From: Minisyncoccota bacterium
GTDB taxonomy: Bacteria > Patescibacteriota > Minisyncoccia > Phycocordibacterales > DSPV01
NCBI GenBank assembly: GCA_036517235.1
Contig: DATDXL010000001.1
Span: 1-42,083, forward strand
Direction: 5' to 3'
DNA length: 42,083 nucleotides
In this document: positions 7,622 through 42,083 of the stretch, in pieces
How positions within the stretch are numbered: position 1 is the first letter of the stretch
Layout of the letters: the number at the start of each line of letters is the position of its first letter
Position numbers and translations under genes: made by a program
The notes under the pieces: generated by a model
What the model was told of the DNA's origin: nothing
The model's input: only the letters and a program-made list of their open reading frames with translations
The model's database searches: none

Positions 7622-8050
7622 TTATTTCGCCGCAGCTCCTGCTCCCTTACCCCTCTTGGCACCGTACTGACTGCGACCCTTTTTGCGTCCCTCAACCCCA
7701 CCGGCATCAAGCTTGCCACGCACGACTTGATAGCGAAGACCAACGTCTTTGACGCGGCCGCCACGCAACATCACCACTGCATGCTCTTGCAGGTTATGTC
7801 CGATACCCGGAATATAAGCGGTAACTTCCATACCGTTCGTAAGGCGTACACGAGCGATCTTTCTGATAGCCGAGTTCGGTTTCTTTGGAGTCTTTGTGGT
7901 TACTTTAGTGCAAACACCGCGCTTGAAAGGAGACGCGAAGAAATTCGGACGATTCTTGAGCACATTGAAACTGCGTCGCAGAGCGACAGATTTCGGTTTT
8001 CGCTTAAGCGATTTCCTGTTTCTCTTAATGAGTTGGTTTATCGTGGACAT
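7622..8050 (-). CDS. rpsL: 30S ribosomal protein S12
   Basis: 142 aa with [10 protein letters not shown]..., [22 protein letters not shown] and [14 protein letters not shown]. It has a basic C-terminal extension. Confidence 0.96.
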
Positions 8051-8159
8051 TTCAACTAAAAAACCTCCGAATGAGGTAACACTAATCTAATACGCAGAGT
8101 CAAAAAAAGCAAGTCTCTTAAGCGCTTAGCGAAACGTACAACCCTACTCACAATCGTTT

Positions 8160-9533
8160 TTATGGCGTGTTCTGATAATGATTCTTTCGTGCCAAACTTG
8201 TAGCATCCTTAACTCCCTCACTCACCTGTATTGGATAATGAAACTCCTTGTGTAGATCAAAAAGTCCTGGAGGAAAAGCCTCGCACTGTTTTATAAAATG
8301 CTCTCGGATTTCCTGTAGGTTCGGTTGCACCTTAACTAAAGCGCCGTCCTCTACGAATTTCTGAAGTAATGCTCCCCCCTCACAAGATTCCTCCTCAAGA
8401 GCAATAATATCTCCAGAAAAAAAGGATCCTGATTTTTTTCTAAAAACCTGTTTTCTCCCTGCATAGGTCTCTTTGTTCTCTGAGAACTTAGCCTTTGGGA
8501 CCCATCCATGCGGCTCTTTTACCTCGGCAATCTTATAGACTATTTCCAACTTCGGTGAATCGGCAGAGGTGACTACATCAGTAACCATTCCATAGAAATC
8601 TATCTTGGAACCCTTACCTTTCAGGTCCGATATTTTATATTCATCAAGATTCGACATCCCAATAATTTTTACATGCTGGAGATTGTGAGTATCCAGCATT
8701 TCACGCGCCATGATGCTTTGCGCCAAAAGATCCCCTGAATCTAGAACGATACCGTGCAATTTCTCTCCTCTCTGCTCCATCTCTTTTGCTACGACAATGA
8801 CATTTTCCACACCTGTTTTGACATCATAGGTATCAACCATCACCGAGCCGAGTGGGTTAGCCGAAAGATAGGCCCGAAATGCATCGATCTCAGTGGGATA
8901 TGAGGATATAAAGAAGTGTGACGCGGTACCTCCATAACTCGGGCTGTCGTACCACTTCTGCGCTAAGAGGAGCGACATATTGGTCATACCGGTGATATAA
9001 CCGCTCCGCGCTATCTTTACCGCTGCCTCAAGCCCCTGGGTGCGTAATTCGCCGACGATAAATCCATTAGGTTTCGCAGAGTGGAAAATGCGTGCAATTT
9101 TTGACGCGATCATAGTCTGGAATCCGACAACGTTGAAAAGTATCGCCTCAAAAAGTTGCAGCTCGACAAGCTTACCCGTAAGCCGCATCAGCGGTTCAAA
9201 GGGGAAACAAATAGTGCCTTCATCGAGACCCCAAATATCTCCCGAGAATCTAAATTTTAAAAAGAACTTCTCTTCCTCTTTGGTAAGCGGAAAAACTGTC
9301 TTAAGCCAGGTTATATCATCAGGAGAGAACTTGAAATTCAGGAGAATCTGAATAGCTTCCTCAAGACCAGCGGCCACAAGATAGTTGCGCCGATGTGGTA
9401 ATTCTTTAACATACAGATCAAACGTAGCTTCTTTGTCGCCATACCCGCTCCTCAGATATGCGAGAATACTGAAAAAGTTGCGGCGAGGAACATAGAGAGC
9501 CATATCCTCATTCGAAATAAGATACTTCAACAT
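8160..9533 (-). CDS. pncB: Nicotinate phosphoribosyltransferase family protein
   Basis: 457 aa. The NAPRTase-like N-terminal domain (ATFDLYVKELP..NYLVAAGLEEAIQ) and overall length fit the family. No search was run. Confidence 0.7.
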   Translation of the reverse strand: MLKYLISNEDMALYVPRRNFFSILAYLRSGYGDKEATFDLYVKELPHRRNYLVAAGLEEAIQILLNFKFSPDDITWLKTVFPLTKEEEKFFLKFRFSGDIWGLDEGTICFPFEPLMRLTGKLVELQLFEAILFNVVGFQTMIASKIARIFHSAKPNGFIVGELRTQGLEAAVKIARSGYITGMTNMSLLLAQKWYDSPSYGGTASHFFISSYPTEIDAFRAYLSANPLGSVMVDTYDVKTGVENVIVVAKEMEQRGEKLHGIVLDSGDLLAQSIMAREMLDTHNLQHVKIIGMSNLDEYKISDLKGKGSKIDFYGMVTDVVTSADSPKLEIVYKIAEVKEPHGWVPKAKFSENKETYAGRKQVFRKKSGSFFSGDIIALEEESCEGGALLQKFVEDGALVKVQPNLQEIREHFIKQCEAFPPGLFDLHKEFHYPIQVSEGVKDATSLARKNHYQNTP

Positions 9534-9555
9534 ACAACTATACTAGCACTTTAAA

Positions 9556-9591
9556 AAATATGAAAAAGGAGCCGACGTGCGTCAGCTCCTT
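9556..9591 (-). terminator. Intrinsic terminator after the LOG-family gene
   Basis: On the minus strand, the stem AAGGAGC...GCTCCTT is followed by TTTCATATTTTTT. Confidence 0.6.
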
Positions 9592-9604
9592 GTGAAAAAC
9601 ATCT

Positions 9605-10198
9605 CTACATTTCCCCATCCGGGCAAACCCACTCAACAGCCTGCCGAGGGGTTTGGGAGGGAATGAACAGGGGTGCGACCTCTTTGGGGAACACTCCCCA
9701 CTTATTGAGCCAATCGCACATGTGAACGTCCCATCCTTCCCCGTACGCGGGGTTGAGAATGGTGAACCTCTTTGGCCTCTCCTTCCAAATCTTGTAGTTG
9801 AGGTTGATGATAGCCATCAACTCCGCAAACGTCCCTGGACCACCGTAGGCGGCAATGATGAATCCGTCAGCTTCGAGCAACCTGCCCAAGCGAAGCCCGT
9901 ATTGTTCCTCGACACTATTGAGGGTCACCACACCTCCGCCGGGAATTAGGAGGGTGCTGCAAGGTACATCAATGTCAAGGAATGAATTGCCAGGTTTATC
10001 GAGCATTGTGTAGCCGAGGGTTTCTCCTCCAGCTTCTTTTGCCCCACGAACTGGAGCTTCCATTCCCGCTCCGCCGAAACCTCCTGTCGCGACTCTGTAG
10101 CCACGCTTCACCAGAAGTCTTCCAACTTCAACCATTGCGTCATACATCGCGTCGCCAGGGGCACCGCTTCCACTTCCGAGACATGCTATTGTTTTCAA
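9605..10198 (-). CDS. LOG / TIGR00725-like Rossmann-fold protein
   Basis: 197 aa with GGFGGAGMEA, PGGGV and GGPGTFAELM motifs typical of the LOG/lysine-decarboxylase-like family. TTG start with AAAGGA 9 nt upstream. Confidence 0.65.
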   Translation of the reverse strand: MKTIACLGSGSGAPGDAMYDAMVEVGRLLVKRGYRVATGGFGGAGMEAPVRGAKEAGGETLGYTMLDKPGNSFLDIDVPCSTLLIPGGGVVTLNSVEEQYGLRLGRLLEADGFIIAAYGGPGTFAELMAIINLNYKIWKERPKRFTILNPAYGEGWDVHMCDWLNKWGVFPKEVAPLFIPSQTPRQAVEWVCPDGEM

Positions 10199-10328
10199 AG
10201 GCCACCGTCCTTTCTTGTGTTGTTTGGTTTATTCAAGAGAAAATGGCTTACTATTTCAAGATAGATAATACAGTATTAATACAATAAAGTCAATACCTTT
10301 TACAAGGTCGGGCCTTGTAAGGAATTTG

Positions 10329-10946
10329 CTACATAGAGAGTCCTGTCAGGAGCCCGAAAAGCAGAGCAATGACTGGGAACAAGAGCCGCCACACAAAAAA
10401 GATAAAAATAAGAACTAATGCAAATGAGTAGCGCTCCAAAAACTCACGGATGTGCTGGAGATGAATCGGTAGAAGGGAAAAGAGGACTTTCGAACCGTCC
10501 AAAGGCGGAATGGGCATGAGGTTGAAAATAGCGAGGACAAGATTGATAAGCACGATGGTTGCGGCAATAGTAATAAATGAAGGTGAAAAAAAGCCGTAGG
10601 CGAATGAAGCACGGATCAAAAGGCCGAATATAATGGCAAGGGCTATGTTAGAAAGAGGGCCTACCGCAGAAACGATCAGCTCTCCATGCCTCTGGTTGCG
10701 AAAATTGTAGGGGTTGACCGGAACCGGCTTCGCCCATCCAAACGTGAATCCCGCAAGCGAGGTGATGATGGGCACTACTATAGAGCCGATCGGATCCAGA
10801 TGCTTTATAGGATTCAATGTAAGACGTCCCGCATAGCGCGCAGTCTGGTCACCCAAAAGAGATGCGGCGTAGCCGTGAGAGACTTCATGAACGACCACGG
10901 ACATGATGAGTATCGCTATTTGAAATATCGTATCTACCGCTTGCAT
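10329..10946 (-). CDS. Site-2 protease (M50) family membrane metalloprotease
   Basis: 205 aa with an HEVSH zinc motif in the first transmembrane segment, multiple transmembrane segments and a PPLDG motif. Confidence 0.8.
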   Translation of the reverse strand: MQAVDTIFQIAILIMSVVVHEVSHGYAASLLGDQTARYAGRLTLNPIKHLDPIGSIVVPIITSLAGFTFGWAKPVPVNPYNFRNQRHGELIVSAVGPLSNIALAIIFGLLIRASFAYGFFSPSFITIAATIVLINLVLAIFNLMPIPPLDGSKVLFSLLPIHLQHIREFLERYSFALVLIFIFFVWRLLFPVIALLFGLLTGLSM

Positions 10947-11120
10947 CCTGTAGTGAAATTTCAGGTTATGTTCGCAAAACGAACACTGTATAACCCGGCT
11001 ATTCTCTAATAAACAACAAAAACGGCTTTGACTTCTTACTTTGTGTCCCCGTAGGGAAAACGACCTGAAATTCTACTACGGGATTGCATTCTTAGAATTC
11101 TATGATACCATATCGCTTCT

Positions 11121-13680: not shown

Positions 13681-13708
13681 AAAGCCGCAACGAGTGTTGC
13701 GGCTTTTT
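13681..13708. terminator. Bidirectional terminator between convergent genes
   Basis: AAAGCCGCAAC-gagt-GTTGCGGCTTT, an 11-bp stem with A and T runs on both flanks. Confidence 0.7.
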
Positions 13709-14571
13709 CATTTCTGCCAAAGTTTTATACCGTCCGTCATAAGCGTAATAGTTCCTAATTCATCGGTGCGCAAGATCTTTGCTCCAGCGACATTGAGCGT
13801 ATCAAGGGTCTCCTGATGGGGATGGCCATAAGAATTTCCTTGGCCGCTTGAAATGACTGCGTATTCCGGAGAAACGGCAGAGACAAAACCCGGAGAAGAC
13901 GATGTGCGCGAGCCGTGGTGAGCAACTTTGAGCACATCGCAGTCGAGCTTCTCGCCATAGAGCTCTACAAGATATTCTTCCACGCCTTTTGTCGTATCGC
14001 CCGTGAGCATAAAGCATGTTTGGCCATAGGTGAGTTTCATAATAAGTGAGCCATCATTGGTGGAAAGCCCAGAGACATCGCGGTCGGGAAATAAAACATC
14101 CAAAATAACGCCGCGCTTTTTATCCAACACTATCCTATCCCCTGCTTTTGGTGTAAAAGGCTCAAGACCTTCCGCAGAAACACCTTTACCGAGTGCCGTG
14201 TAGACGGCTGTAGCCGTGAGCGTCCCTGGCTCAACCTCATTTCCTACATCGTAGCGTTTGAGTACATCCACAAATCCAGCGATGTGGTCTTTGTCGGGGT
14301 TGCTCACGATGAGCATATCAATAGAACGGTCATAGAACGGCATCACACCAGAGAGCTCTCGGAACACTGAGCTATCAGGACCACCGTCAAGGAGCACTTG
14401 CACACCGTTCGGAGCTTCAATAAAAATCGCGTCGCCCTGACCGATATCAAGAACCGATACCGAAAGGATGCCACCACGTTCTTCGTGCCATGCGGCAAAC
14501 CAAAGAAAAATATTGGTTATTAAAAGAAGACCGAAAAGAAACACAGGTAAATATTTTCCAAGATTCTTCAT
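13708..14571 (-). CDS. ComEC-type metallo-beta-lactamase domain protein (stand-alone)
   Basis: 287 aa from the ATG at 14571, with AAGGAGG upstream. It has an N-terminal transmembrane segment, LDIGQGDAIFIE, NPDKDHIAGF, KVAHHGSRTSS and YGHPHQETLD, as in the C-terminal MBL domain of ComEC. Confidence 0.8.
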   Translation of the reverse strand: MKNLGKYLPVFLFGLLLITNIFLWFAAWHEERGGILSVSVLDIGQGDAIFIEAPNGVQVLLDGGPDSSVFRELSGVMPFYDRSIDMLIVSNPDKDHIAGFVDVLKRYDVGNEVEPGTLTATAVYTALGKGVSAEGLEPFTPKAGDRIVLDKKRGVILDVLFPDRDVSGLSTNDGSLIMKLTYGQTCFMLTGDTTKGVEEYLVELYGEKLDCDVLKVAHHGSRTSSSPGFVSAVSPEYAVISSGQGNSYGHPHQETLDTLNVAGAKILRTDELGTITLMTDGIKLWQK

Positions 14572-14630
14572 CCTGAAAGTATACCCCTCCTTTACTTCAA
14601 ACTTCAACAAAAAGAAGTAAGCTTTCAATT

Positions 14631-14664
14631 GTTGACTAATTATCCGTACGGATAATTAGTCAAC
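14631..14664. promoter_or_regulatory. 34-bp perfect palindrome GTTGACTAATTATCCGT/ACGGATAATTAGTCAAC
   Basis: Verified self-complementary. It carries TTGACT in both orientations and lies 60 nt upstream of the MBL-domain gene start. Confidence 0.5.
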
Positions 14665-14668
14665 ATGG

Positions 14669-20375: not shown

Positions 20376-20544
20376 ATCTCGTATTCCTTTCTTGTTGATT
20401 TGTTTGTGTTGAACTCTTGCGCTTTTAGGACGTATCCCTCAAGGCAGAACCTAACCAACACTACTATCTAATCAAGCAATGCAATGATCCGTAACCGCTT
20501 CCCCAATTTCCTCTATACATGGGTATAGAGCATAGCACCAACAT

Positions 20545-20566
20545 ACGTTATATCTTAGCTATAGCA
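20545..20566. repeat. Left inverted repeat bracketing the PaaX-like gene (ACGTTA-n6-AGCTATAGCA)
   Basis: Its inverted partner TGCTATAGCT-n6-TAACGT is at 21172..21193. 16 of 22 positions match. Confidence 0.55.
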
Positions 20567-20592: not shown

Positions 20593-21159
20593 TTATCTAA
20601 GTCCGAAACGAGAACGTATAGGTTGGTCATACTCCAGTGATTCAACAACCATGTACAGCAGATCTCTCCCTATTTTAAAATCAGCCTTTAGAAGGGAGAT
20701 GAGGTCTTCGCAATCATAGGGGTAAATCCATACGCTGTCTTGGAGACGAGCAAAACCAATTGCTATCAATGTCGTACGCACTTTCTCTCGGAGAGGCTTT
20801 CGTTTCTCTGGGATATCAAAGATGAGAACCCGCCATTTGCCATCCCATCGCCTTGGTTTCTTTATTTGATAATCCATTAGTTCAAGCTGGCGGAGTTTCG
20901 TCTTGCCTTTAGAGGTAAGACAAAGAAATTTCCCCTCATACTTGAGTAACCCTTTCGCTATCATCCTGTTACGAGAAACTGTAATAAATTCCCTCTGTCT
21001 CTTGGAAGGAAGAAGTCCGAGTTTTGCTAAAGCTCCTAAAACATTAGGCGCCACCAGCCCCACGCTAAGAACACCTGCGGCTGCCACGCTTCCGAGAATT
21101 ATCTTCTGCAGATTCTTTCTCCTGCTCCGTTTATAAGATTTCCACTCTAATTTACCCAT
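20593..21159 (-). CDS. PaaX-like (Cas2/VapD-fold C-terminal domain) putative transcriptional regulator
   Basis: 188 aa. WDGKWRVLIFDIPEKRKPLREKVRTTLIAIGFARLQDSVWIYP matches the PaaX-type W.G.W..(V/L)..(F/Y).IPE..R..R pattern. There is one transmembrane-like N-terminal segment. Confidence 0.45.
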   Translation of the reverse strand: MGKLEWKSYKRSRRKNLQKIILGSVAAAGVLSVGLVAPNVLGALAKLGLLPSKRQREFITVSRNRMIAKGLLKYEGKFLCLTSKGKTKLRQLELMDYQIKKPRRWDGKWRVLIFDIPEKRKPLREKVRTTLIAIGFARLQDSVWIYPYDCEDLISLLKADFKIGRDLLYMVVESLEYDQPIRSRFGLR

Positions 21160-21171
21160 ACGTTTACTTAC

Positions 21172-21193
21172 TGCTATAGCTATAAATTAACGT
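21172..21193. repeat. Right inverted repeat bracketing the PaaX-like gene
   Basis: TGCTATAGCTataaatTAACGT, 13 nt upstream of the gene start. It is the partner of 20545..20566. Confidence 0.55.
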
Positions 21194-21269
21194 GTTGGGA
21201 ATCTAAGAGCAACTACCCGCTCTCTTCTCCATTCTCCCCCTGATTCCCTATTCCTTGGTGCAAGGTATA

Positions 21270-24821: not shown

Positions 24822-24849
24822 GAGTTGTTACGATATATCGTAACAACTC
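24822..24849. promoter_or_regulatory. 28-bp perfect palindrome GAGTTGTTACGATA/TATCGTAACAACTC
   Basis: Verified self-complementary. It lies 38 nt downstream of the TrpR-like gene stop and shares the core TACGATATATCGTA with 25305..25326 and 40062..40093. Confidence 0.6.
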
Positions 24850-24886: not shown

Positions 24887-25285
24887 CTAGAGTTCCTGCA
24901 GTAATTGCTTGAGTGACCTCCGTTGCGCCGTAAAGGGTATAGATGCTAACTGCAGTAGCATTTTAATAATGATTGGAGTACGCGAACGTTGTATCCATTC
25001 CATCGTTTTAGAAAATGTCCCACGCTCTACCTTCACCTGAAACCGCGCAACTGAAGACGGACTCATCTTGAGGAGACGACAGATTTTCCTCGTCGGAGCA
25101 TTCTGTTCAATAAGAAAAACTAGGGCAATTCGTTTTGCCAACATGGTACGCTCCGTAGGGGTAAGCAGTTCATTGACCAAGACGTGCCGAGTCTTATCAC
25201 TATATTCAGTGAGCAACAACGTCATCTTTTCTTCCATAGCACGAAGGGTTTGGAGATTGACCGCGTGTTTCGATACATGAGGCAT
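24887..25285 (-). CDS. TrpR/YerC-like small helix-turn-helix DNA-binding protein
   Basis: 132 aa from the ATG at 25285. LLTPTERTMLAKRIALVFLIEQNAPTRKICRLLKMSPSSVARF resembles the Trp-repressor-like YerC/YecD fold. Confidence 0.5.
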   Translation of the reverse strand: MPHVSKHAVNLQTLRAMEEKMTLLLTEYSDKTRHVLVNELLTPTERTMLAKRIALVFLIEQNAPTRKICRLLKMSPSSVARFQVKVERGTFSKTMEWIQRSRTPIIIKMLLQLASIPFTAQRRSLKQLLQEL

Positions 25286-25304
25286 AAAAAGAAAAACGAG
25301 TGAT

Positions 25305-25326
25305 TTGTTACGATATATCGTAACAA
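25305..25326. promoter_or_regulatory. 22-bp perfect palindrome TTGTTACGATA/TATCGTAACAA, candidate autoregulatory operator
   Basis: It lies 20 nt upstream of the TrpR-like gene start and has the same core as 24822..24849. Confidence 0.6.
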
Positions 25327-25405
25327 GCCAGTCGTAAAAGCACAACGTGCCGGTAACAACATCGCAAGGTTTTAGGTAATCGCGAAGGAAAATACCGCAG
25401 AAAGG

Positions 25406-35323: not shown

Positions 35324-37345
35324 ATGGACCAACTGTTTTTGAACATCAGCAATCCTTTCATGCTCTTTGCACTCATCGCCGCCGTAGTGGCTATTGTGTA
35401 CGGCTTGCTGCTAGCACGTACCATATTCAAGAGAAGCCCCGGTAATGCCCGCATGCAAGAGATATCTGATGCGATACGCCAGGGTGCGAAAGCATACCTC
35501 AACCGACAATATAAGACCATCGGAGCCATCGCTCTCGTCCTTTTCATCATCTTATGGGCAGCACTGGATCTGCGCGTGGCGCTTGGATTTATTATCGGAG
35601 CATGCTTCAGTGCGCTTGCGGGCTACATTGGCATGAACGTCTCGGTGCGCACGAATGTGCGTACCGCGGAAGCCGCACGCCAGGGACTTGCCCCAGCGCT
35701 CTTGCTCGCATTTCTGGGCGGAAGCGTGACAGGACTCCTTGTCGTGGGATTGGCACTTCTTGGTGTCGCCGGATTTTATGCGATTACGGGAGATGTAAAA
35801 TCTCTTATCGGACTTGGCTTTGGGGCAAGCCTCATTTCAGTATTCGCTCGTCTTGGAGGTGGCATTTTCACCAAAGCAGCTGACGTCGGCGCTGACCTCG
35901 TTGGGAAAGTGGAAGCGGGGATCCCCGAGGATGACCCCAGGAACCCTGCCGTCATCGCTGACAACGTCGGTGACAACGTCGGTGACTGCGCGGGTATGGC
36001 AGCCGATCTTTTTGAAACCTACGTGGTAACCCTGGTTGCAACCGCGCTTCTCGGTCACCTTATCTTCCCAAACTTTGCCGGAGCAATCATCTATCCGATC
36101 GCCCTTGGCGGAACCGCCATTATCGCTTCTATCATTGGAATGTGGTTCGTCCGTCTCGGCAAGAGTCAAAACATCATGGGAGCGCTCTACAAGGGTCTTA
36201 TCGCTGCCGGTATCCTCTCTGCAATTTCCTTTTATCCTCTCACTAAAGTCCTCATGGAGGGAAATGGCCTCTACACAACGACCAACCTCTTCATCGCCGC
36301 GCTCGTGGGACTTCTCGTAACCGCAGCGTTCGTCATCATTACTGAATATTACACCTCAACAAAATATAAACCGGTACAGTCTATAGCCAAGGCATCACTT
36401 TCTGGGCATGGCACAAACATCATCCAGGGGCTTGCGGTTTCCATGAAAGCAACTGCTTTGCCTTTGATTACCATCGTTGCGGGAATTCTTATCACCTACC
36501 ACGTGGCAGGTCTCTATGGTATCGCGATCGCCGCGATGTCGATGCTCTCGATGGCGGGCATCATCGTCGCTATTGACGCGTATGGACCTATCACCGACAA
36601 CGCGGGGGGTATCGCTGAAATGGCAGAACTCCCTAAAGAAGTGCGCGATGTCACCGACCCCCTTGACGCGGTAGGAAATACAACCAAGGCGGTAACTAAG
36701 GGTTACGCTATCGGTTCTGCGGCATTGGCAGCACTTGTGCTTTTTGCCGCGTACACGCAAGAATTTGCTTCTCTCGGAAAAGAACTGGTCTTTGCCCTTG
36801 GCGACCCCAAAGTCATCGTGGGACTTTTCGTAGGAGGTCTTCTCCCCTACTACTTCGCAGCTCTCGCGATGGAAGCGGTGGGAAAAACCGCCGGAGAAGT
36901 CGTCAATGAGGTGCGAAGACAGTTCAGAGAGATAAAAGGCATCATGGAGGGCAAGGCGAAACCGGATTACGCGCGAGCAGTTGATATAGTCACCGGTGCC
37001 GCAATCAAACAAATGGTGCTTCCTGCTCTTATACCAGTGCTCGCGCCGATCATTGTCGGTTTTACGCTTGGACCTGTGGCGCTGGGCGGATTGCTCGTCG
37101 GCTCCATCATCACAGGGCTATTCGTCGCCATTTCTATGACATCTGGAGGCGGTGCATGGGATAATGCGAAGAAGTACATCGAGGCAGGAAATTTTGGAGG
37201 AAAGGGTTCTGACGCGCACAAAGCGGCCATCACCGGCGACACGGTAGGAGACCCGTACAAAGATACGGCTGGGCCAGCGATAAACCCCATGATTAAGATA
37301 TTAAACATCGTAGCGTTACTATTGGTAGGTTTTCTTGCTAAATAA
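35324..37345 (+). CDS. hppA: Membrane-bound proton/sodium-translocating pyrophosphatase
   Basis: 673 aa from the ATG at 35324, with [37 protein letters not shown] and [14 protein letters not shown] motifs. Confidence 0.95.
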
Positions 37346-37473
37346 GGTATCTTTGTAAGGGTCTGGGAAGGGGTCGGGAAACGGGAGTTTCCCGTACAGG
37401 AGAGCAACGAGTCTGCGAGCGTTGAGAACCGTGGGTTCTCAAGGAGGAACCCGCAGCGGGTGACGACGATTCG
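37346..37473 (+). other. Structured 128-nt spacer between hppA and its duplicated 3' end
   Basis: It opens with GTATCTTTGTA (37347-37357), the reverse complement of TACAAAGATAC at 37256 and 37474. It contains the hairpins CGGGAAAC-ggga-GTTTCCCG (37375-37394) and TTGAGAACC-gtg-GGTTCTCAA (37422-37442). Confidence 0.6.
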
Positions 37474-37563
37474 TACAAAGATACTGCTGGGCCAGCTATC
37501 AATCCGATGATAAAGATATTGAATATTGTAGCCCTACTGCTTGTTGGATTCCTAGCGAAGTAG
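37474..37563 (+). pseudogene. Displaced duplicate of the last 29 codons plus stop of hppA
   Basis: It translates to [29 protein letters not shown], identical to the hppA C-terminus. 19 of 29 sense codons and the stop codon differ at the nucleotide level. There is no start codon, and an in-frame TGA lies at 37423. Confidence 0.8.
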
Positions 37564-39809: not shown

Positions 39810-40811
39810 TTAGGACTTTGGGCTTGGTGCTTCCAGCTTCTTTCTTACTATAAGCTCCAGCCTTTTGGCTTTGGAATGAGATAGCATTCCAAGATACGAC
39901 GGAAGGTTCTTTCCATTCACACACGAAAGCATGCGGTGCTTTGTTCTTGTCCTTAAAACTGTCCGATGCGGAAGAACGACGTATCCGAGAAAATCAACGC
40001 CTTGCCTTAATTTTCTAATCTCTATTTTCACCGGATGAAGCGAGAGAAATAATCGTTCGCGCAGAAATACTACGATATATCGTAGTATTTCTGTAAGCGA
40101 CGGGTCATCGGAAAAAATAAACACAAAATCGTCGCAGTAGCGGATATAGTATTTCTGTCTGAGTCTGTGCTTTATGAACTGGTCGAGCTCGTTAAGGTAA
40201 ATGTTGGAAAACAACTGGCTCGTGACATTGCCGAGCGGTAAACCCTTTCCACTGCTCGTCTCAAAAGACCTGACGATATGCACAACGAGCCCGAATAGCC
40301 TCTCGTCGGCTACCTTTTCGCGGATGAGTGAAAGAAGAATATGGTGGTCTATTGAATCAAAGAACTTCTTGATGTCACATTTGAGCACATAACCCTGTCG
40401 TCGAAAATTTGAAGTAACCTTTTGAGCAAAAATCTGGAGACGTTCTACGCCTGCATGGGTACCCTTTAGGTTTCGGGAAGAATAGGAGTCGTGGATAAAC
40501 GACGGGTCAAAAACGCCGTAGAGCCTTCGATACACTGCTTGAAAGAGCACTCGGTCTCTGACACTCGCTTTATGGATACGACGCAACTTAGGATCACGAA
40601 CGAAAAAAGATACGTATGGCTCGGGCTTCCATGTCCCTTGTGCTAGACTTTCATGGAGGGCGAAGAGCTCACCCTCAAGAGTAAGTTCAAATGCCGCAAT
40701 GTCCGATTTCTTTCGTTTTCCTCTGGCAAACTCGCGCCAAGCCGCAAAAAGATTTGGAAGTGAGATTACATCACAAAAACTAATACTATGATGACCCCCC
40801 CCCAACGACAC
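39810..40811 (-). CDS. DGR-type reverse transcriptase
   Basis: 333 aa with RT motifs KCDIKKFFDSIDH, LPLGNVTSQLFSNIYL (the DGR-typical [IL]GxxxSQ) and YIRYCDDFVFIF (YxDD). GTG start at 40811. The start is uncertain. Confidence 0.9.
   Translation of the reverse strand: MSLGGGHHSISFCDVISLPNLFAAWREFARGKRKKSDIAAFELTLEGELFALHESLAQGTWKPEPYVSFFVRDPKLRRIHKASVRDRVLFQAVYRRLYGVFDPSFIHDSYSSRNLKGTHAGVERLQIFAQKVTSNFRRQGYVLKCDIKKFFDSIDHHILLSLIREKVADERLFGLVVHIVRSFETSSGKGLPLGNVTSQLFSNIYLNELDQFIKHRLRQKYYIRYCDDFVFIFSDDPSLTEILRYIVVFLRERLFLSLHPVKIEIRKLRQGVDFLGYVVLPHRTVLRTRTKHRMLSCVNGKNLPSYLGMLSHSKAKRLELIVRKKLEAPSPKS
40062..40093. repeat. 32-bp perfect palindrome CAGAAATACTACGATA/TATCGTAGTATTTCTG inside the RT coding sequence
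   Basis: Verified self-complementary. It encodes TEILRYIVVFLRE and shares the 14-bp core TACGATATATCGTA with the palindromes at 24822 and 25305. Confidence 0.8.
40795..40803 (-). repeat. Homopolymer G9 (C9 on the plus strand) at codons 3-6 of the RT
   Basis: The plus strand reads ATGACCCCCCCCCAACG. On the coding strand it is GTG TCG TTG GGG GGG GGT. Confidence 0.8.
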
Positions 40812-40836: not shown

Positions 40837-41151
40837 ATGCTGCATTTGGAGATTTACCGCATCGGTAAGAAACTGCCGAAGGGCGATAAGCTAGGCATTC
40901 ACGCGGAAGTTGAAAGGAAATGTTTCAAACTTCTCTCATGTTCCATAGAAGCCGCATATAGACCAAGAAAGGAAAAAACGGAAACGCTCGTGGAACTTCG
41001 CTTAACAACAGAAGTACTGAAGAATATCTGGCGCACAGAATGCGAACTTGGGATTGTGGATGAAAAGACCTATCTGCGCATCGCAGAGAAAATGGTAGAG
41101 ATATCAAAGATGACAAATGGTTGGATAACCTACACGCAAAAAGGAGCGTGA
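40837..41151 (+). CDS. avd: Avd-like four-helix-bundle accessory protein (23S rRNA IVS protein family)
   Basis: 104 aa. LEIYRIGKKLPKGDKLGIHAEVERKCFKLLSCSIEAA...LVELRLTTEVLKNIW...ISKMTNGWI follows the four-helix-bundle/Avd pattern. It lies on the strand opposite to TR and RT. Confidence 0.7.
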   Translation: MLHLEIYRIGKKLPKGDKLGIHAEVERKCFKLLSCSIEAAYRPRKEKTETLVELRLTTEVLKNIWRTECELGIVDEKTYLRIAEKMVEISKMTNGWITYTQKGA

Positions 41152-41170
41152 AAGCTCCTTTGATGCGAGA

Positions 41171-41276
41171 AACTTCGGGACGAAACCGCACGTTATCATT
41201 GGCATTGTCCAGATTCCAGTCGTTGACCTTCACCTTGCTATCGTTGAAGTTCACGTTCGGCACGTTACCGTCTGCG
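41171..41276 (-). repeat. DGR template repeat (TR)
   Basis: 41177-41276 aligns without gaps to 41513-41612. At all 20 mismatches this copy has A on the minus strand. Its translation NVPNVNFNDSKVKVNDWNLDNANDNVRFRP has 9 AAY codons. Confidence 0.9.
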
Positions 41277-41440
41277 ATTCGTTTTACCTCATTCCGTCCG
41301 TATCTCCGAGAATATTTCACAAAATTCTCTGTGTCCCACTCGGGGTACTCCGATCATGGTATGGAACAAGGCAAGCAGTTTCTTTGTGTGTGACCAATCG
41401 CCATACGCTTTAGCGGACCGACTGCACAGTCAACGTTAGT

Positions 41441-41491: not shown

Positions 41492-42083
41492 TTAAGAAGG
41501 AAGGTAAACTGTGGGACGAAACCGCACGAAATCACAGGCATGGCCCAGAGACCAGCCGTCGACCTTCACCCCGCCATCGCCGAAGTCCACGCGCGGCACG
41601 CCACCGTCTGCGGTTTCCGATTCGGCGCACATTGTCACCACCGCTCGATCCAGGAGCTTCTTGGAAGCGTTCTCCAAAAACACATCGGCGCCGAGCACCA
41701 GGCGAACCGGCAAGGTAGTCGTCCGGAGCCCAAACGGGGCAAGGGAGCGCACCGTGCGAGTGTTTACGTTGACGCCACCAAGTTTGCCGAACGGCGCTTC
41801 GTCATCATCCGCAACCCAGCAGCCGAAAGTACCGGTGACGTTGTGCTTTGGCACCGCTTCGTCCAAACTGGTGCTTCCGGAAAATTTCCAATGGTTGCAA
41901 GTGCCAGCCATCAGTTTTTCGTTGGCGCGGTAGAGAAGCTCCGAAGAGTTTCCTTTTTCGTGCATAACAATCAGGCGGGCTTTGAAGTGAGTTGGTGGCT
42001 TCGGAATCGGCAGTGCGGCAAAATCGGTATTGGTGCCATAGACCGTCTTCCACCGTCCTTCCCAGTGCTTCGCCAGCTCTGAT
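41492..42083 (-). CDS. DGR target protein, 5'-truncated by the window edge, with a C-terminal variable region
   Basis: The frame stays open from the window end to the TAA at 41492-41494, with no stop upstream of the listed Met. The last ~35 aa (ADGGVPRVDFGDGGVKVDGWSLGHACDFVRFRP) are encoded by the VR. Confidence 0.8.
   Translation of the reverse strand, partial: SELAKHWEGRWKTVYGTNTDFAALPIPKPPTHFKARLIVMHEKGNSSELLYRANEKLMAGTCNHWKFSGSTSLDEAVPKHNVTGTFGCWVADDDEAPFGKLGGVNVNTRTVRSLAPFGLRTTTLPVRLVLGADVFLENASKKLLDRAVVTMCAESETADGGVPRVDFGDGGVKVDGWSLGHACDFVRFRPTVYLPS
41507..41612 (-). repeat. DGR variable repeat (VR)
   Basis: It matches the TR at 80 of 100 positions (41513-41612). Substitutions occur only opposite TR adenines. 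It ends 15-20 nt before the target stop codon. Confidence 0.9.

Follow-up and report, generated by a model that had tools for sequence, protein, structure and literature searches.

Perfect palindromes that are probably operators for a TrpR-family regulator flank the regulator's own gene and recur inside the reverse transcriptase (RT) gene of a diversity-generating retroelement (DGR) in a 42,083-nt DNA segment of a Minisyncoccota bacterium (contig DATDXL010000001.1). This whole stretch is hereafter called the window; the regulator family and the relatives of the RT come from outside it. Binding of the palindromes by a dimer of the regulator, with the RT site as an intragenic operator, is the overall explanation that we favor, and we regard it as probable rather than firm.

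Three perfect palindromes with a common core

The palindromes and the gene of the proposed binder are as follows.

24822-24849: downstream palindrome, candidate operator; 28 bp, perfect, GAGTTGTTACGATATATCGTAACAACTC; between the convergent TrpR-like and HIT genes
24887..25285, minus strand: 132-aa TrpR/YerC-like helix-turn-helix (HTH) gene of the 'MPHVSK' family, proposed binder (profile, AlphaFold2 (AF2) and Foldseek evidence)
25305-25326: upstream palindrome, candidate operator; 22 bp, perfect, TTGTTACGATATATCGTAACAA; centre 30 bp 5' of the regulator ATG
40062-40093: RT-internal palindrome, operator-type site; 32 bp, perfect, CAGAAATACTACGATATATCGTAGTATTTCTG; codons E-I-L-R-Y-I-V-V-F-L

A sequence-only reading of the window had pointed out these palindromes, and re-examination of the sequence confirmed their coordinates, lengths and perfection. 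All three contain the same 14-bp core, TACGATATATCGTA, of which the window has exactly three copies. That reading had also held three copies to be beyond coincidence, and this was borne out by dinucleotide-preserving shuffles of the window (n=100): with up to 2 mismatches allowed, the core occurs 4 times against 0.04 expected, and 4 occurrences were reached in 0/100 shuffles.

The downstream palindrome begins 37 nt beyond the stop of the TrpR-like gene. The upstream one ends 19 nt from the ATG at 25285, and its imperfect extension spans 25296-25335. A longer open reading frame (ORF) starting at TTG reads through the upstream palindrome; it was rejected as the gene, since the MPHVSK start at 25285 is kept in all homologues. 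The RT palindrome encodes (T)EILRYIVVFL(RE), immediately C-terminal to the YCDD motif of the RT. An assembly artefact is ruled out for this site, as the ORF is intact and an independent assembly of another sample (L139) contains the same palindrome.

The regulator is a distant TrpR/YerC relative

The window protein scored 23.9 bits against Pfam PF01371 (Trp_repressor; cut-off 27) and 21.9 bits against the NCBIfam TrpR model. The homologue beside a Taylorbacteria DGR (L341, see below) exceeded the PF01371 cut-off at 32.3 bits, and PF01371 is on record for the relatives P0004 and P0005. The family profile matched the PDB entry 3kor, 'possible Trp repressor', with E=3.5e-5. The AF2 model of the window protein has 8 helices and a mean predicted local distance difference test score (pLDDT) of 75.6. 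Foldseek ranks 1-33 in the PDB were all TrpR or TrpR-like, with probabilities of 0.72-1.0, target-normalised template modelling (TM) scores of 0.46-0.70 and weak E-values (0.07-1.4). As modelled, the protein has the all-helical HTH fold of the TrpR type. The YerC/YecD (HisR) model TIGR02531, with a cut-off of 42.2 bits, gave no hit for the window or L341 protein; among the proteins tested it was passed only by a 103-aa protein of another locus (L159, 49.9 bits). An exhaustive HMMER search returned 512 family clusters (50% identity, E<=1e-3). The family is a distant relative of TrpR and YerC, specific to bacteria of the candidate phyla radiation (CPR).

Matching palindromes flank the regulator gene across the family

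Our first homology search found few relatives, and both that could be placed in context had the motif. The syntenic 77% orthologue (L012) carries the core upstream and 26 nt downstream of the gene. In the 44% homologue, whose contig is non-syntenic and rich in GC (L018), two of the three copies lie upstream and the third 26 nt downstream. The family alignment, without its most divergent member, was then used to scan JGI metagenomes and gave 276 relatives, of which the best 80 loci were analysed. Flank statistics were taken from the 53 distinct proteins whose loci extend 90 bp or more on each side of the gene, counting perfect palindromes of at least 14 bp within 80 bp upstream or 85 bp downstream.

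Upstream palindromes were found in 41 of the 53 members (centre at a median of 17 bp before the ATG) and downstream ones in 37 (median 21 bp past the stop), against a background of 0.146 per kb elsewhere in the family loci. In the 32 members with palindromes on both flanks, the central 14-mer was identical on the two sides in 31; among these the core was TACGATATATCGTA in 23 and another sequence in 8 (e.g. ATACAGCGCTGTAT, TATGATATATCATA, ACCGATATATCGGT and CATATATTAATATATG). The tie between palindrome and small HTH gene proposed from the window alone therefore recurs throughout the family.

The core changes together with the recognition helix. The helix start SPS[ST] was present in 34/35 members with a TATCGTA half-site vs 1/19 with other cores. 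Among the variants, STST pairs with TATCGG operators, SSST or SGST with TATCGC and TATCGAA, T[RE]QT with TATCAT, SE[AS]T with GCTGTAT or GATGTAT, and STAT with AATATATG. This covariation argues for direct base readout by the TrpR-like protein and against another factor as the binder. Binding and autoregulation by a TrpR-like dimer through the flanking sites are, on these comparisons, very probable. The original suggestion that the HTH protein binds the core and controls its own gene is supported in this respect; for physical binding the support is computational.

The arms beyond the core vary between genomes and are common to the sites within a genome, with ±8 usually constant. ATAT-TACG arms occur at all of at least 10 sites in a Campbellbacteria metagenome-assembled genome (MAG), and AAATGT-TACG arms at each of the four sites in Parcubacteria bin.649. 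Arm bases thus probably contribute to a recognition sequence that is specific to the lineage. Where the arms are very long (up to 32-48 bp), template switching may have extended the palindrome.

Such lengths would also suit RNA hairpins, acting as a stabiliser or terminator around the regulator mRNA or as an RNase III or attenuation site in the RT mRNA. The arms are often far longer than an HTH dimer needs (median ~26, up to 48 bp), and the transcript unit of the regulator has sites at its 5' and 3' ends; some sites lie between convergent genes. However, the palindromes are continuous and perfect through the centre, with an invariant GATATATC apex and no loop. Near-palindromes had 7 G·U, 5 A·C and 8 transversion mismatches, so there is no sense-strand G·U bias (7 vs 5). 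No T-tract was found 3' of the sites in the window, and an Rfam search of the palindromes gave no match, which rules out a known RNA family. The absence of a loop, of G·U bias and of an Rfam match favors a double-stranded DNA site, and so does the covariation of the core with the recognition helix of a fold that binds DNA. We therefore consider the RNA hairpin unlikely.

Several family loci showed further features of the palindromes. One (L284) has six core copies within 1 kb around its regulator gene. Short contigs of other assemblies (L007-L010, L001) stop within a few to ~60 bp of regulator-flanking palindromes, and one contig end is a 120-bp perfect palindrome around the core (L152 4158-4278). 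These ends are probably assembler behaviour at perfect inverted repeats.

The RT site lies in a genuine DGR

The window comes from the chromosome of a groundwater CPR bacterium of the Paceibacterota (Rifle aquifer sample series) and has genes for NusA, H+-pyrophosphatase, trigger factor, RecJ, PGK/TIM and type IV pilus proteins. Its DGR comprises the following features.

39810..40811, minus strand: DGR RT gene, 333 aa (RVT_1, E=2.1e-21; YCDD and LPLGNVTSQ motifs)
40837..41151, plus strand: accessory gene avd, antisense to the RT, between the template repeat and the RT
41170..41279, minus strand: template repeat (TR), of a 110-nt repeat pair
41506..41615, minus strand: variable repeat (VR), at the 3' end of the target gene
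41492..42083, minus strand: 3' part of the DGR target gene, which continues past the window end (277 aa in contig L011, no Pfam hit)

TR and VR mismatches fall at TR adenines in 21/23 cases. The avd product scored 41.6 bits against the NCBIfam model DivGenRetAVD (NF033474; cut-off 80), and PF22296 (bAvd) is on record for the called gene. With adenine-specific TR/VR differences, an RT and avd, the DGR of the window is genuine.

The sequence-only reading had offered a DNA or RNA hairpin in retrohoming as an alternative role for the RT palindrome. The site is inside a DGR gene, and the Bordetella phage BPP-1 DGR uses a hairpin or cruciform next to its VR. However, the palindrome at 40062-40093 lies ~1.4 kb from the VR and ~1.1 kb downstream of the TR, and is not an inverted repeat just downstream of the VR and its initiation of mutagenic homing (IMH) element. 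In addition, 114 of 120 related DGR RTs lack it, and the same element flanks the regulator and sits in leuS and miaA. A DGR-specific hairpin is, on this evidence, extremely improbable.

The RT gene has nine consecutive G on its coding strand close to the 5' end (40797-40805), encoding SLGGG. The run is kept in a 63%-identical Taylorbacteria RT (L341 10006-10014), and the scaffold of the second sample has a gap exactly there (L139 5714-5752). It may be a slipped-strand switch or merely an assembly-prone tract.

The RT site recurs at the same codons in other DGRs

At E<=1e-30 the RT has 7993 homologues, most of them in Paceibacterota and other CPR bacteria, and the closest bear the names Paceibacterota or Taylorbacteria. 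The core occurs at the same LRYIV codons in seven DGR RTs, the window's included (the others are L148, L341/342, L343, L344/345, L346 and L347). One of them, a Paceibacterota RT of 47% identity (L148), came from an 18-mer scan of GTDB species genomes and has a 32-bp palindrome at these codons. Among the 120 best RT homologues, RYIV stands at the equivalent position in 6, again counting the window's own. All 5/5 non-window RTs picked in this way, by peptide alone, have the exact 14-nt core in a perfect palindrome of 16-26 bp:

P0011 (L341/L342): 24-bp RT palindrome
P0016 (L343): 26-bp RT palindrome
P0045 (L344/L345): 24-bp RT palindrome
P0008 (L346): 16-bp RT palindrome
P0076 (L347): 26-bp RT palindrome

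The probability that RYIV is encoded as CGATATATCGTA under the codon usage of the window is 0.0064, indicating that the peptide follows the DNA motif and not the reverse. The codon usage, the shuffles and the exact core in all five peptide-found RTs together rule out chance or codon bias as the origin of the site. In a neighbour-joining tree, site-bearing RTs occupy at least 4 separate positions, with neighbours that have the degenerate variants ILRCIV, ILGHIV and IYRYID, which suggests gain and loss. Conservation in orthologous RT genes had been put forward as a check on the site, and RTs with the same peptide and no palindrome as the case that would count against it; the seven RTs agree with the former, and no instance of the latter occurred among the peptide-found RTs. 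Collectively, these comparisons show in silico that the RT site has been selected at the DNA level in several lineages.

One of these RTs stands next to a family regulator. The Taylorbacteria contig L341/L342, from the same sample as the source contig of the window, is arranged as follows.

7935-8327, minus strand: TrpR-like gene, divergent from the DGR target gene
8554-9291: DGR target gene, divergent from the TrpR-like gene
9162-9284: VR
9520-9642: TR, with TR/VR mismatches at A in 19/19
9658-9999: avd, antisense
10001-10990: RT

The regulator is bracketed by 30- and 32-bp palindromes, and the RT site, TCTCTTACGATATATCGTAAGAGA, has the same arms as the downstream operator of this regulator. 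In both this DGR and that of the window, avd lies between TR and RT on the opposite strand, so a transcript from TR to RT would be antisense to avd.

Core sites at other genes

In CPR MAGs, the GTDB scan also showed the core within leuS, at one shared position in MAGs of Paceibacterota (L183) and Saccharibacteria (L185), within miaA, likewise at a shared position in MAGs of Kaiserbacteria (L157) and Saccharibacteria (L248), and within a glycosyltransferase gene. All intragenic copies are read in the RYIV frame. Other copies lie 10-40 bp upstream of three uracil-DNA glycosylase (UDG) genes (L227, L246, L232), 72 bp upstream of priA (L189) and, in some cases, between convergent genes. The genuine YerC/YecD protein gene of L159, a CPR MAG, has a TACGATATATCGTA palindrome 27 bp upstream of its start.

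The positions in housekeeping genes raise the possibility that the TrpR-like protein binds the sites for chromosome organisation or marking (as with parS, matS or Noc/SlmA-like systems), or in a general roadblock or nucleoid role, with no DGR-specific meaning. The orthologous positions in leuS and miaA across distant CPR classes would fit this, as would the low to moderate number of copies carried by these small genomes (one Campbellbacteria MAG has at least 11) and the flanking of the binder's own gene, which some parS sites also show. However, many sites lie 10-80 bp upstream of starts (the regulator, the three UDG genes and priA), the classic position of an operator, and the recurrence of the RT site in at least 4 RT lineages speaks for a benefit tied to that gene. 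Such a role is improbable in our view, if slightly less so than that of an RNA hairpin.

The palindromes could alternatively be a small mobile repeat of the repetitive extragenic palindrome (REP) or miniature inverted-repeat transposable element (MITE) kind, with the HTH gene associated and the RT copy an insertion. Identical palindromes flank the gene as REPs flank REP-associated tyrosine transposase (RAYT) genes, several genomes are multi-copy, and a tandem array bears the site. This array (L266 5449-5809), downstream of a family member, consists of a 111-bp unit with the operator palindrome in 3.3 tandem copies of 98% identity; its four cores spaced 111 bp apart looked CRISPR-like, and it proved to be a plain tandem repeat. 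Against a mobile repeat, the RT gene has no indel relative to a siteless homologue (P0007, see below), the intragenic copies all lie in the RYIV frame at orthologous codons, no transposase is nearby, and the associated gene encodes an HTH regulator. The core is present in only 3 copies within 51 kb. The palindromes thus lack the marks of REP/RAYT- or MITE-like elements, and this origin is highly improbable.

Known boxes and viral sources were rejected as well. NrdR boxes have the consensus acaCwAtATaTwGtgt and occur in tandem ~31-32 bp apart upstream of nrd genes. No nrd genes lie by the sites examined, the paired sites are spaced 58-82 bp apart, and the core differs at ±4, 7 and 8. A LexA box was ruled out by neighbouring genes and spacing. 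Among the matches listed in a viral 14-mer scan, most were single and apparently due to chance, and a viral or phage origin was dismissed. On one IMG/VR phage contig (L057 3794-5880) the 14-mer occurs three times, each in an intergenic TTGTCAAG-N-ATATACGATATATCGTA repeat resembling a phage promoter or operator; no TrpR-like gene was found near these sites, and the repeats are unrelated.

A putative intragenic operator in the RT gene

In the mechanism that we propose, a dimer of the protein encoded at 25285->24887 would bind all three palindromes. Its recognition helix (...SPS[ST]VAR...) would read the invariant core TACGATATATCGTA, and lineage-specific arm bases would add specificity. The two flanking sites, one over the promoter or 5' region and one past the stop, would provide autoregulation, maybe with looping or a block to read-through. 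The third site would have been written by nucleotide substitutions into a tolerant helix of the RT, where the peptide became LRYIV. Once the site is occupied, RNA polymerase would be stalled or blocked after ~720 nt of the 1002-nt gene and would not reach motifs 6/7 and the thumb; the truncated transcript would mean less RT and less mutagenic retrohoming in response to the ligand of the regulator. We infer physical binding, the sign of the regulation and the roadblock from sequence, and put forward the roadblock or intragenic operator step at the RT tentatively, at somewhat below an even chance.

Several observations weigh against this interpretation. At the RT site itself, the arms (...ATAC|TACG...) are unlike those of the regulator's own operators in this genome (...TTGT|TACG...), with C and not T at ±8, so that occupancy by, or affinity for, this particular paralogue is uncertain. 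In arm class the site resembles the operators of L284 and L293-L298. The RT site of the window may bind more weakly, may serve an unseen paralogue, or may be left over from horizontal transfer of the DGR. P0007, the RT homologue nearest to it (70% identity), lacks the palindrome and carries the peptide TLVLRIASFLESK without any indel; the RT site therefore arose by substitution in a variable helix, and a repeat insertion into the RT is ruled out. Scans for promoter and terminator consensus sequences around each of the three sites did not rise above background, which likewise excludes the palindromes as promoters or terminators. Intragenic operators are atypical for TrpR and HisR, and the palindromes, with a median of ~26 bp and lengths up to 32-48 bp, are often longer than the 20-bp TrpR-type operator.

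At the genome level, the core in leuS and miaA and upstream of UDG genes means that the regulon is wider than the DGR, with the RT as one target among several. Among the regulator loci, an RT lies within 5 kb at 1/80 (L289), about chance level, and adjacency of regulator and DGR was rejected as a rule: only L341 and L289 have it, and the RT of L289 lacks the core. That DGR-type RT, 3.5 kb from its TrpR-like gene, has a different 32-bp perfect palindrome, TCATTCTCTAATTCGCGCGAATTAGAGAATGA (L289 9383-9414), in the coding sequence between motifs 3 and 4.

Finally, the 16-mer TTACGATATATCGTAA stands ~30 bp before PadR-family genes (165-260 aa) in 36 MAGs or genomes, which belong to Dehalococcoidia, other Chloroflexota, Actinomycetota and others and include some with 68-73% GC. 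The loci are:

PadR/TTACGATATATCGTAA loci: L149, L154-L156, L158, L161, L163, L166-L168, L172, L175, L178-L180, L184, L194
PadR/TTACGATATATCGTAA loci, continued: L200, L208, L210, L217-L221, L223, L228, L235, L236, L238, L249, L250, L253, L254, L258

Here an unrelated family of regulators seems to use an identical palindrome. The finding would also be compatible with another binder, such as a winged helix of the PadR or PaaX type, for which the TrpR-like gene is merely the most constant target. Just beyond the right end of the window, a 38-bp near-palindrome, ATATGCTAACTTTACGCTATAGCGTGAAGTTAGCATAT (L011 8296-8333), with the related core TACGCTATAGCGTG, marks the start of a PaaX_M-type gene that is divergent from the DGR target. 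However, neither the CPR loci nor the window yielded a PadR of that family, the cores change with the TrpR-like recognition helix in the proportions given above, and the flanking arrangement follows the TrpR-like gene into non-syntenic contexts. We judge a different binder to be very unlikely, and retain the TrpR-like dimer.

Other palindromes and repeats of the window

The organism has two PaaX_M-type genes of 188-192 aa. The core TACGCTATAGCGTG beside the one at the DGR target matches the TrpR-type core at 11/14 positions. The second gene (20593-21159, minus strand) is accompanied by an imperfect palindrome centred on GCTATAGC at 21152-21201 and by a 2-mismatch copy of the core at 20544-20557. 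A 36-bp perfect palindrome with a different core, TGTTGACTAATTATCCGTACGGATAATTAGTCAACA, occupies 14630-14665, immediately 5' of a gene with a metallo-beta-lactamase fold (13708-14628, minus strand); a terminator-like hairpin comes just before it, and the palindrome probably serves another regulator as its operator. A copy of the final 91 nt of the H+-pyrophosphatase gene (37254-37344), with 78% identity, lies 218 bp downstream at 37472-37562 and is a partial duplicate of the 3' end of the gene.

Discussion

The E. coli TrpR repressor binds a palindromic operator of ~20 bp, with operators at trp, aroH and trpR, and regulates itself through the site at its own promoter. The window protein resembles it in its small, all-helical HTH fold of the intertwined-dimer type, by Foldseek and profile. 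The similarity is marginal by the Pfam score given above, and the operator is TACGATATATCGTA here as against TGTACTnGTnnACnAGTACA in E. coli. The present system further differs in its second identical site past the stop, its intragenic sites, its CPR hosts and its targets, which as far as found are not those of amino-acid biosynthesis.

TrpR-family regulators, including YerC = HisR, use lineage-specific 20-bp palindromes found by comparative genomics (PMC9413887). HisR, the YerC/YecD protein of Firmicutes, has the consensus cacTTTAnnnnnnTAAAgtg with sites upstream of his genes and a regulon of histidine metabolism (PMC9413887). The window protein differs in falling under the YerC/YecD model cut-off, and has a conserved MPHVSK N-terminus and a longer C-terminus; the likeness to the HisR family lies in the lineage-specific palindromes of a TrpR-family protein, and a genuine YerC/YecD member in CPR bacteria, that of L159, has its TACGATATATCGTA palindrome upstream. 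PadR autoregulation in Chloroflexota and Actinomycetota shares the TTACGATATATCGTAA 16-mer upstream of the own gene, and differs in its unrelated winged-helix fold, its single site without a downstream partner, its usual lack of extended arms and its phyla.

Intragenic or roadblock operators such as lac O2 in lacZ, gal OI in galE and the cre and CodY sites act by looping or by blocking elongation. They accompany a promoter-proximal operator, whereas here no core site was found at the DGR promoter of this organism, where the PaaX_M-type gene and its 38-bp near-palindrome lie instead, and the site is deep within the gene. As with the DGR accessory elements Avd, IMH and the VR-proximal hairpin, the RT site lies in a genuine DGR; unlike them, it is not beside the VR, is missing from most DGRs and is common to non-DGR genes. 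By analogy, the system would work like TrpR/HisR autoregulation combined with an intragenic operator of the lac O2 or roadblock type. What is new is a CPR-wide family with an almost invariant 14-bp core, the presence of matching sites to either side of the family's own gene, and the in-frame sites conserved within RT, leuS and miaA genes, in which DNA-level selection overrides codon choice.

A literature search found no regulator-binding site for a DGR RT, no DGR regulator of this kind and no relevant mention of the motif, and to our knowledge little is established about how cells control DGR activity. No known reservoir of DGRs is richer than the CPR bacteria, and these are not easily cultured, which makes a sequence-defined regulator/operator pair useful for the study of DGR control in them. 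The dataset also provides a clean natural example of helix-operator co-evolution in the TrpR family. That a TrpR-like sensor gates DGR hypermutation through the RT operator, together with a few replication, repair and translation genes, is an idea we advance as speculative and rather doubtful. If true, it would represent the first cellular regulator of a DGR and a long-term selection for a transcription factor site within coding sequence across a phylum-level radiation, and surface-protein diversification would take place only in a particular physiological state, such as the loss of a host or of nutrients.

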